64,000 nucleotides of DNA. Source: Eledone cirrhosa (lineage: Eukaryota). The stretch is from positions 22,630,001 to 22,694,000 of the forward strand of contig OZ024754.1 in NCBI GenBank assembly GCA_964016885.1. Reading direction: 5' to 3'. The notes under the pieces were generated by a model that was not told the origin of the DNA, ran no database searches, and saw nothing but the letters and a program-made list of their open reading frames with translations. The translations under genes were made by a program, and so were the position numbers. Numbering within the stretch: the first letter of the stretch is position 1; every line of letters starts with the position of its first letter. Shown here piece by piece: positions 38,859 through 42,100 of the stretch.

Positions 38859-38864
<6 letters not shown>

Positions 38865-41800
38865 TGAAACAAAATGAAAATGAAATTTCATTTCTCACTC
38901 TTAGTATGGCACTTACTTAAATGTAAGTATGCATGTATACGTACATACATATATGTATACAGACGTACAGTAGCATGCACATATATATATATATATACAT
39001 ATATACATACATGTGCATACAGGTACACATACATATATGCACGTATCAGTTTAGCGGCGCCAACGTCGCTTTGTTCGTTTGTAAACAAACTGAACAGCCT
39101 GAATTTATGCCATACGGTGTTAAGGCAACCACGTCACCTTTTTGTTCAACACTGACACAGGAACGATGTACTAGTTTCAAGCTTGTTAGCTATCATCAGC
39201 ACCGTTTACCCATCTGCCAGATAGTTGAACGTTCGAAAGTATATACTTTCCTTATGAAAATTAACGGCTGAGCAGCCTAATTTGCATATTGAGTGAGTTA
39301 AATCGGTCAGGCATACCGAAAACGATAAATTGAAACAAAATGAAAATGAAATTTCATTTCTCACTCTTAGTATGGCACTTACTTAAATGTAAGTATGCAT
39401 GTATACGTACATACATATATGTATACAGACGTACAGTAGCATGCACATATATATATATATATACATATATACATACATGTGCATACAGGTACACATACAT
39501 ATATGCACGTATCAGTTTAGCGGCGCCAACGTCGCTTTGTTCGTTTGTAAACAAACTGAACAGCCTGAATTTATGCCATACGGTGTTAAGGCAACCACGT
39601 CACCTTTTTGTTCAACACTGACACAGGAACGATGTACTAGTTTCAAGCTTGTTAGCTATCATCAGCACCGTTTACCCATCTGCCAGATAGTTGAACGTTC
39701 GAAAGTATATACTTTCCTTATGAAAATTAACGGCTGAGCAGCCTAATTTGCATATTGAGTGAGTTAAATCGGTCAGGCATACCGAAAACGATAAATTGAA
39801 ACAAAATGAAAATGAAATTTCATTTCTCACTCTTAGTATGGCACTTACTTAAATGTAAGTATGCATGTATACGTACATACATATATGTATACAGACGTAC
39901 AGTAGCATGCACATATATATATATATATACATATATACATACATGTGCATACAGGTACACATACATATATGCACGTATCAGTTTAGCGGCGCCAACGTCG
40001 CTTTGTTCGTTTGTAAACAAACTGAACAGCCTGAATTTATGCCATACGGTGTTAAGGCAACCACGTCACCTTTTTGTTCAACACTGACACAGGAACGATG
40101 TACTAGTTTCAAGCTTGTTAGCTATCATCAGCACCGTTTACCCATCTGCCAGATAGTTGAACGTTCGAAAGTATATACTTTCCTTATGAAAATTAACGGC
40201 TGAGCAGCCTAATTTGCATATTGAGTGAGTTAAATCGGTCAGGCATACCGAAAACGATAAATTGAAACAAAATGAAAATGAAATTTCATTTCTCACTCTT
40301 AGTATGGCACTTACTTAAATGTAAGTATGCATGTATACGTACATACATATATGTATACAGACGTACAGTAGCATGCACATATATATATATATATACATAT
40401 ATACATACATGTGCATACAGGTACACATACATATATGCACGTATCAGTTTAGCGGCGCCAACGTCGCTTTGTTCGTTTGTAAACAAACTGAACAGCCTGA
40501 ATTTATGCCATACGGTGTTAAGGCAACCACGTCACCTTTTTGTTCAACACTGACACAGGAACGATGTACTAGTTTCAAGCTTGTTAGCTATCATCAGCAC
40601 CGTTTACCCACCGTTTATATATATATATATATGTGCATGCTACTGTACGTCTGTATACATATATGTATGTACGTATACATGCATACTTACATTTAAGTAA
40701 GTGCCATACTAAGAGTGAGAAATGAAATTTCATTTTCATTTTGTTTCAATTTATCGTTTTCGGTATGCCTGACCGATTTAACTCACTCAATATGCAAATT
40801 AGGCTGCTCAGCCGTTAATTTTCATAAGGAAAGTATATACTTTCGAACGTTCAACTATCTGGCAGATGGGTAAACGGTGCTGATGATAGCTAACAAGCTT
40901 GAAACTAGTACATCGTTCCTGTGTCAGTGTTGAACAAAAAGGTGACGTGGTTGCCTTAACACCGTATGGCATAAATTCAGGCTGTTCAGTTTGTTTACAA
41001 ACGAACAAAGCGACGTTGGCGCCGCTAAACTGATACGTGCATATATGTATGTGTACCTGTATGCACATGTATGTATATATGTATATATATATATATATGT
41101 GCATGCTACTGTACGTCTGTATACATATATGTATGTACGTATACATGCATACTTACATTTAAGTAAGTGCCATACTAAGAGTGAGAAATGAAATTTCATT
41201 TTCATTTTGTTTCAATTTATCGTTTTCGGTATGCCTGACCGATTTAACTCACTCAATATGCAAATTAGGCTGCTCAGCCGTTAATTTTCATAAGGAAAGT
41301 ATATACTTTCGAACGTTCAACTATCTGGCAGATGGGTAAACGGTGCTGATGATAGCTAACAAGCTTGAAACTAGTACATCGTTCCTGTGTCAGTGTTGAA
41401 CAAAAAGGTGACGTGGTTGCCTTAACACCGTATGGCATAAATTCAGGCTGTTCAGTTTGTTTACAAACGAACAAAGCGACGTTGGCGCCGCTAAACTGAT
41501 ACGTGCATATATGTATGTGTACCTGTATGCACATGTATGTATATATGTATATATATATATATATGTGCATGCTACTGTACGTCTGTATACATATATGTAT
41601 GTACGTATACATGCATACTTACATTTAAGTAAGTGCCATACTAAGAGTGAGAAATGAAATTTCATTTTCATTTTGTTTCAATTTATCGTTTTCGGTATGC
41701 CTGACCGATTTAACTCACTCAATATGCAAATTAGGCTGCTCAGCCGTTAATTTTCATAAGGAAAGTATATACTTTCGAACGTTCAACTATCTGGCAGATG

Positions 41801-42100
41801 GGTAAACGGTGCTGATGATAGCTAACAAGCTTGAAACTAGTACATCGTTCCTGTGTCAGTGTTGAACAAAAAGGTGACGTGGTTGCCTTAACACCGTATG
41901 GCATAAATTCAGGCTGTTCGATTTGTTGACAAACAAACGAACAAAGCAGGCGTTATAATAAACGTCGGCTAAACTGATGCGTGCATATATGTATGTGTAC
42001 CTGTATGCATATGTGTATGTGTGTGTATATATATATATATATATGCATGCTACTGTACGTCTGTATACATATATGTATGTACGTATACATACATACTTAC
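38859..42100. repeat. Palindromic array of 466-bp HHR-containing monomers (retrozyme-like)
   Basis: About 3.75 antisense units (38859-40610), then about 2.8 sense units (40618-41918) and a diverged tail. The ORF track repeats with period 466. Seven HHRs. Confidence 0.95.
40873..40917 (+). ncRNA. Type-I hammerhead ribozyme (family B; also 41339 and 41805 plus; 39162, 39628, 40094, 40560 minus)
   Basis: aacggtg-CTGATGA-t.agct(aaca)agct.t-GAAA-ctag-TA-catcgtt: 7-bp stem I and palindromic stem III ACTAGT. Confidence 0.88.

Follow-up and report, generated by a model that had tools for sequence, protein, structure and literature searches.

A very young head-to-head retrozyme array in a TA microsatellite, likely primed from both target strands by a Penelope-like element protein

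Anatomy of the array and of its hammerhead motif

The locus described here lies in a window of 64,000 nucleotides (the whole stretch of DNA that was analysed) and consists of a head-to-head array of 3.76 + 3.2 units of 466 bp, about 3.2 kb in length, that is set in (TA)n. Positions in the unit are numbered m1-m466, where m1 is the first base past the predicted cut of a hammerhead ribozyme (HHR) motif. The array has the following parts:

38768..38861, no strand: (TA)47 target microsatellite, left
38859..40610, minus strand: arm A, 3.76 units, running from m423 (junction) to m310 (outer 3' end)
38859..38917, minus strand: the 'tail', m252-310, present solely at the outer end of arm A
40609..40617, plus strand: head-to-head junction, a CACCGTTTA repeat followed by a TA overlap with arm B
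40616..42102, plus strand: arm B, 3.2 units, running from m172 (inside the TA run of the unit) to m248 (outer 3' end)
40911..41376, plus strand: cut-to-cut monomer, 466 nt
42101..42120, no strand: (TA)n target microsatellite, right

Arm A (1752 bp) has no mismatches to the 466-bp period, and arm B is free of mismatches to the 466-bp monomer from 40616 up to 41919. At the junction CACCGTTTA occurs twice, at 40598 and 40609, and the repeat corresponds to 5 additional templated bases (40611-40615). A preliminary description of this DNA had reported a 466-bp multimer folded into a palindrome with HHR motifs, and the array, the period, the palindrome and the motif were all found. The single flip that it placed at 40610-40618 is the junction listed above; consistent with the same description, the antisense arm stops a few nucleotides past an HHR with a short duplication (6 nt beyond the 5' strand of stem I, with the two occurrences of CACCGTTTA), and the sense arm starts within the unit's own (TA)n. 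Note that because both flanks are (TA)n, a target-site duplication could not be delimited.

The array has a GC content of 0.33-0.37, lacks LTRs and is non-coding. The sole frame that overlaps it is a low-complexity frame of 123 aa, and the ORF list contains no RT plus GIY-YIG ORF in the array, which is thus not an autonomous Penelope-like element (PLE). The 466-nt monomer has a predicted fold of -157.9 kcal/mol (z -8.4), much of which is due to a TA/CA hairpin, and a further hairpin is predicted in the tail, upstream of the m310 start. An octamer, ATGCAAAT, is located at m348 of the unit; we take it to resemble the snRNA-type promoter of newt satellite 2, a likeness that is a lead only and of which a literature search gave no confirmation.

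Seven type I HHR cores (CUGAUGA ... GAAA-CUAG-UA) are distributed over the two arms:

39169..39199, minus strand
39635..39665, minus strand
40101..40131, minus strand
40567..40597, minus strand; arm A ends 6 nt past the 5' strand of its stem I
40880..40910, plus strand; predicted cut after GUA (40908-40910), at 40910
41346..41376, plus strand
41812..41842, plus strand; predicted cut 41842/41843

A strict HHR descriptor recovered from the window these seven cores together with one unrelated satellite match at 2629, and gave no matches in 10 shuffled windows. The motif contains CUGAUGA, GAAA and GUA and has three helices, of which helix I is open, with a stem I of 7 bp. It had been called a canonical type I HHR, a term that suits the catalytic core nucleotides but not stem II, whose first pair is U·U in place of the canonical G-C pair at the base of helix II. 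In the monomer, stem III is a single pair closed by the palindromic CUAG loop, and the stem III duplex that could form between two copies has a predicted energy of -6.8 kcal/mol. Axolotl HHRs with a U·U in helix II or with a 1-bp helix III cleave best as dimers (PMC7229834, available part). The loop, the predicted duplex and the axolotl parallels are in keeping with the earlier proposal of a dimer-type HHR with a self-complementary stem III, and the units would, we infer, be transcribed and then cut as dimeric HHRs. (Speaking against this, only one of nine Xenopus dimers tested cleaved, according to the available part of bioRxiv 10.64898/2026.07.22.740005.) Among older copies, the HHR has changes at N7 and in loop II as well as a swap of G·U to U·G in stem I. 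With Rfam, no family reached its gathering score for the array; HH9 fell below it (18.5 bits vs 52, E 0.13), and the matches obtained by E-value were rejected as miRNA models aligned to the TA/CA repeats.

The preliminary description had also taken the monomers to be identical. This holds for arm A but not for the outer part of arm B, which is chimeric:

41683..41919, plus strand: crossover interval between 466-type and 479-type sequence, holding the cut 41842/41843
41920..42102, plus strand: outer part of arm B, of a ~479-bp sister subfamily

The outer part matches the 466-bp monomer at 89% (18 differences, insertions among them) and the ~479-bp sister subfamily (L062, L063) at 98%, differing from the latter solely in the microsatellite; a 41-mer diagnostic of this subfamily has 454 copies. 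We place the crossover in 41683-41919 because between m307 and m77, a stretch that spans the cut, the two types do not differ. Among 82 arrays (fetched stretches with at least two typed units, a few loci having been fetched twice) only that of the window is both contiguous and mixed, two other mixed rows having turned out to be separate neighbouring insertions. The microsatellite haplotype of the 479-type piece was found nowhere else in the assembly and is therefore compatible both with a template switch and with joining to a resident copy. With modest confidence, we favour the reading that synthesis of arm B started on a 479-type RNA and passed to a 466-type RNA within the crossover interval, possibly at the cut. 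There is nevertheless a substantial chance that arm B was joined to a pre-existing 479-type copy, and the unique haplotype also fits an older resident copy. The chimeric arm is the special feature of the locus, which is otherwise one of many such loci.

Layout and arm ends across the genome

A 37-nt core of the unit has 10,333 exact copies (5,272 + 5,061) in the 3.0-Gb genome. The 466 subfamily, followed with a diagnostic 35-mer, accounts for 76 copies at 13 loci; 11 of these loci are head-to-head, with outer ends at m243-251 and m305-310, and two are single-armed. At the 466-type loci examined each junction was different, none being common to two loci. Along the first 100 cores of the listing, the strand switched head-to-head in 15 instances and tail-to-tail in one (p=0.0005). 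Moreover, m310 stands directly before TA in 937 dispersed copies. For an architecture count we used the first 60 of these 937 sites, taken consecutively, so that the m310 end was given by construction; a second arm ending at m243-255 was found at 41 of the 60 (at m251 in 27 cases), and 27 of the 41 junctions had an overlap of 1-6 nt. The other 19 loci were single-armed, extended beyond the 5-kb span used for the count, or were misparsed by the automatic walk. The first 20 loci of a separate set of 40 comprised nine clean 251/310 pairs, one 251/251 pair and one tail-to-tail pair, whereas the second 20 had mostly been picked for strand switches and were excluded from the unbiased count. Thus, the central inversion seen in the window recurs at other loci, and the head-to-head layout is the family norm. 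Either arm can be a long multimer, with 8+7 units at the locus C4a and 27 units in one arm at L059-L060.

The survey bears directly on whether the palindrome might be a fold-back artefact of sequencing or assembly. In favour of an artefact, the comparison with reads skipped repeats at 40606-40686, the exact junction included. However, the two arms are unequal and start in different phases, the tip of arm B belongs to a different subfamily, and the layout is repeated with different junctions at dozens of loci, older diverged ones among them; contigs of run X1, possibly the source sample, contain 11 other antisense-to-sense joints. Because many loci have different junctions together with two fixed unequal ends, we regard a fold-back artefact as excluded.

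The fixed ends also bear on the possibility that one-ended TPRT was followed by cDNA snap-back and self-priming, or by a variable 5' inversion in the manner of L1, to give the second arm. Self-priming has been proposed for the inverted repeats of PLEs (PMC3846280, available part), a few junctions are locally palindromic (as at C1, where both arms start at m43), and the junction in the window shows template slippage. A copy-back should, however, mirror the first arm, whereas the fixed end of the second arm lies 59-65 nt away; the lengths of arms A and B are uncorrelated (Spearman 0.12, p=0.47), the second arm often being the longer, and the tip of arm B at our locus comes from a different subfamily. 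We therefore consider snap-back improbable.

Where the arms stop was analysed for 101 arms (60 A arms and 41 B arms), with a mean stop rate of 0.0011 per base, and two of 13 partly overlapping bins stand out. The bin m1-40, just 3' of the predicted cut, which was picked after L023 and L074 had been seen, holds 21 of the 101 arm ends when 8.1 were expected (p=1.2e-4); 11 of these are first-pass stops and 10 are later-pass stops. L023 starts at the cut and both arms of L074 start at m4. Note that most templates were continuous at the cut, because it is crossed by 59 of the 69 arms extending as far as m40, and that the excess at m1-40 could alternatively reflect pausing at the long closing stem. 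The other bin, m246-254, coincides with the start of the B arms; of 57 A arms, nine stop there on their first pass when 0.56 were expected. The B start site lies in the loop of a predicted 7-bp hairpin. The stops of A arms at the B start fit a single RNA that carries two primers or two bound enzymes, and both excesses fit two primers on one ribozyme-processed RNA.

These arm ends argue against the idea that the array is a DNA-level satellite, formed by tandem amplification and inversion, with a non-functional hammerhead look-alike. Later duplications do happen in the family, as L059-L060 and L192 indicate. Yet 937 dispersed copies share the same end base before TA, the second end is fixed as well, stops cluster at the predicted cut, and in older copies the HHR varies at tolerant positions only. 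Hence, a satellite origin appears very improbable.

Some further copies deserve mention. L042 (G000:C1:11817885-11821340) is a rare tail-to-tail pair in which the plus arm ends at m251 and the minus arm at m310, the arms being 1.2 kb apart with a TA-rich repeat between them. L059-L060 (G000:C3:180042570-180056160), with its 27-unit arm, has higher-order periods of 5 and 10 units, and about half of its units have a mutation in stem III. In the window itself, 35030-35430 holds an older lone unit of the same retrozyme family (77-85%) amid microsatellites, with changes in stem I and stem III. Sequencing runs X2, X3, X6 and X10, which have other organism labels, contain the unit at low depth; because X6 and X10 also contain the neighbouring PLE repeat, we take these units as possible carry-over and not as interspecies spread.

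Penelope-like elements, priming and the template

Sequences of two PLE families are found close to the array:

35505-37510: second PLE family, with an endonuclease-like fragment at 35901-36413 and direct and inverted terminal repeats
42130-42835: terminal-repeat fragment of the second PLE family, directly after arm B
43919-46479, minus strand: 5'-truncated PLE with an RT fragment plus a GIY-YIG-like domain, 1.8 kb right of the array

The element at 43919-46479 has an inverted pLTR, type I HHRs at 44071-44115 and 46225-46269, and a 58-nt tail that codes for the start of the ORF. Its family is young, with head-to-head copies, intact ORFs of 1281-1294 aa and at least 150 copies at 98-100% aa among the matches listed; recently active intact PLEs are thus present in the genome. 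The ends of the pLTRs fall at 459 (13 ends), 514-517 (nine ends) and 441 (one end), with two sites 58 nt apart. The C-terminal domain of the protein is similar to GIY-YIG clusters, and Pfam gave a weak match to RVT_1 (E 4e-5) and no match for the full PLE ORF. When the retrozyme unit was compared with the pLTRs of the two PLE families (65 loci) there was no DNA similarity, the matches being to neighbouring retrozyme copies only, and no autonomous partner was thus found among these two families.

According to the available parts of PMC8557442 and PMC3846280, PLE insertions are characterised by an inverted 5'-truncated copy, a one-ended tail and a bias towards (TA)n. In vitro, a purified anole PLE protein nicks AT-rich DNA on both strands and extends them, its RT starts at two sites inside the RNA between which the tail lies, and insertion proceeds without need for HHR cleavage, the main substrate being unprocessed RNA (PMC11167929, available part). 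The signature of a PLE-mobilised sequence, an inverted 5'-truncated copy with a one-ended tail, is present at 41 of 60 and 11 of 13 loci of the retrozyme. Involvement of a PLE, as invoked in the preliminary description under the term 'PLE-type 5' inversion', is therefore supported, but a simple 5' inversion does not describe the insertion: the 3' starts of the two arms (m310 and about m251) are fixed, and in the window the minus arm has the tail. Because both starts are fixed, neither arm is a variable inverted remnant.

We think it quite likely that a non-LTR retrozyme was inserted head-to-head, very recently, into a TA microsatellite, and that a PLE protein primed reverse transcription from both cut strands, using two fixed sites on one RNA that lie about 60 nt from each other. 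From what was observed (the unit, the HHR motif, the TA target, the layout, the fixed ends, the junctions and the stops) we infer the RNA-level and enzyme steps as follows. After transcription and self-cleavage of units as dimers, a PLE protein would capture the retrozyme RNA, and both strands of (TA)n would be nicked by the PLE endonuclease. RT would then start at m310 from one DNA 3' end and at about m251 from the other, each cDNA would re-read the monomer for several rounds, and the two cDNAs would be joined via microhomology, with a short slip. Points that weigh against this explanation are the lack of DNA similarity to the two PLE families compared, the 19 of 60 loci that were not cleanly two-armed, the stem III mutation in about half of the units of L059-L060, and PLE insertion in vitro that could dispense with HHR cleavage.

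The template that is re-read was probably a covalent or nicked circle; that it was an incompletely cut linear multimer seems rather doubtful. At 5 of 23 long loci (m76-114 and m126-192 being masked), both arms are fixed for private variants in all of the units that cover them, and the same applies to C4a (16/16), C8 and C9; L058 has 14 near-identical units. The fixation of private variants across both arms requires a monomer bottleneck. Other variants speak against a pure monomer circle, namely those with period 3 at L023 and those with periods 5 and 10 in the 27-unit arm of L059-L060, and so do a 2-unit block repeat at L192 and private variants that lie in register in the two arms of a neighbouring 591-bp palindrome. 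(For L192 a dimer circle was ruled out, the outer units being without the variants.) The haplotype of the window array is also present in an 11-unit run on C1, and so the choice between circle and linear template does not follow from the window locus itself. Rolling reverse transcription on a circle, as originally suggested, is plausible, but the cut-site stops, the higher-order periods and the chimeric arm imply other templates or later duplications too.

An alternative that departs from our preferred explanation at the template step only is that PLE priming at two sites took place on a linear multimer, read through from an existing array and cut only in part by the ribozyme, with no circle and with later growth by unequal crossing-over. 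Such a template would account for multi-unit arms that end at the cut (the 10 later-pass stops), for the higher-order periods and for in-register private variants in both arms of a 591-bp palindrome (see below); moreover, possible source arrays with the haplotype of the window exist (the 11 units at C1), and unprocessed RNA was the main substrate in vitro (PMC11167929, available part). However, the private variants that are fixed across both arms call for a monomer bottleneck, sharing in register between arms was found at one of 23 loci, at a microsatellite edge, and the 466-type loci examined have no junction in common. On balance we judge the linear multimer unlikely.

Taking up the preferred circular template again, we tentatively suggest that the arrays could be footprints of double-ended rolling-circle RT, in which a PLE dimer holds one ribozyme-made monomer at two fixed sites, both chromosome ends travel round this monomer, and the cut acts as a nick that makes the enzyme either halt or move to a different RNA. 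The chimeric arm would in that case record such a jump, made at the cut from one retrozyme RNA to another; a single mechanism would cover the tandems, inverted copies and tails of PLEs, and the hammerhead would gain a role in vivo.

Related systems and neighbouring repeats

Judged by its sequence, the array is a non-LTR retrozyme in the sense of PMC7229834 (available part). As described in the available parts of that paper and of Li, Clavereau & Pollet (2026, bioRxiv 10.64898/2026.07.22.740005), metazoan non-LTR retrozymes also consist of tandem non-coding units, each with a single type I HHR, and are likewise low in GC, present in thousands of copies and found together with PLEs. The array shares a weak helix III with a palindromic tetraloop with axolotl Amex1, and a U·U at the base of helix II with the active axolotl Amex2; its unit of 466 bp is longer than the RNAs of 170-400 nt in PMC7229834 (Cervera & de la Pena 2020) but falls inside the range of 51-972 bp of the bioRxiv study. 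Expression as linear and circular monomer RNA is a further hallmark of non-LTR retrozymes.

The kind of element is thus already known, and its insertion anatomy is seemingly new for retrozymes, as we did not find it in print. The word 'inverted' occurs 0 times in the available part of PMC7229834, and the main text of bioRxiv 10.64898/2026.07.22.740005, likewise in its available part, has nothing on a head-to-head layout or two fixed ends; more generally, a literature search that mostly covered papers outside subscription yielded no account of retrozyme insertions that have two arms and fixed ends.

Non-autonomous Chlamys PLEs such as MRC1 also form multicopy head-to-tail insertions that are credited to PLE, but at the 3' end they are similar to their autonomous partner, and they belong to a clade without canonical HHRs, unlike the array (PMC8557442, available part). 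Endonuclease-bearing PLEs (PMC8557442, PMC3846280 and, for anole Poseidon, PMC11167929, in their available parts) resemble the array in having head-to-head arms, a one-ended tail, AT-rich targets, microhomology junctions and two start sites. The array differs from them in that it has no ORF, its tail is about 60 nt as opposed to 30-40, both arms can be long multimers, and no matching pLTR was found in the two PLE families compared. In LINE-1 twin priming, both target strands prime on one RNA and an inverted segment is produced; the position of the second priming site varies, and the insertion has a poly(A) end. Unlike in that process, both sites are fixed in the array and the arms are periodic.

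The link between retrozymes and PLEs has hitherto been based on co-occurrence and pLTR similarity, and a PLE origin of non-LTR retrozymes has been argued (bioRxiv 10.64898/2026.07.22.740005, available part). The same text states that the copying mechanism of retrozymes is still to be elucidated, and the origin of PLE tandem and inverted copies and of the tail is undefined according to the available part of PMC8557442. Here, the insertion signature of PLEs can be followed at base resolution in hundreds of young copies of a retrozyme, and the arm stop positions suggest that two primers shared one RNA and that the cut site plays a role. Exact substrates for an in vitro test (the RNA, the start sites, the TA target and intact PLE ORFs) are now defined.

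A second retrozyme-like family occupies 46498-52162 of the window, where units of 591 bp are arranged head-to-head (4.5 + 5.1 units), and has a second, diverged copy at 60919-61988. Its ends are at m80 and m245, an offset of 165 nt, and unit 2 of both arms of the palindrome carries the private variants 475A and 79G. A 23-mer of this family has 7,167 copies, with 15 head-to-head and one tail-to-tail arrangements. By eye, its units contain an HHR-like motif with a variant U3-A8 core, a long helix II and a palindromic stem III. More HHR-like motifs were seen by eye in repeats beside TA runs, at 43159-43432 / 52511-52776 and at ~33985-34045; neither these nor the motif of the 591-bp family were recovered from the window with a loose HHR descriptor. 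Short palindromes adjoin TA runs at 38692-38768 and 38422-38537 and are possibly tiny head-to-head insertions, and the sequence 38483-38683 is repeated at 52229-52431. An LTR retrotransposon-like element at 26908-32246 has terminal repeats of 603 bp (98.8% identity), and its gag-, RT- and integrase-like frames are on the minus strand. Finally, a frame at 18407-18790 resembles what we take to be an exon of a proteasome alpha subunit, and the repeat cluster may be situated inside a host gene or close to one.
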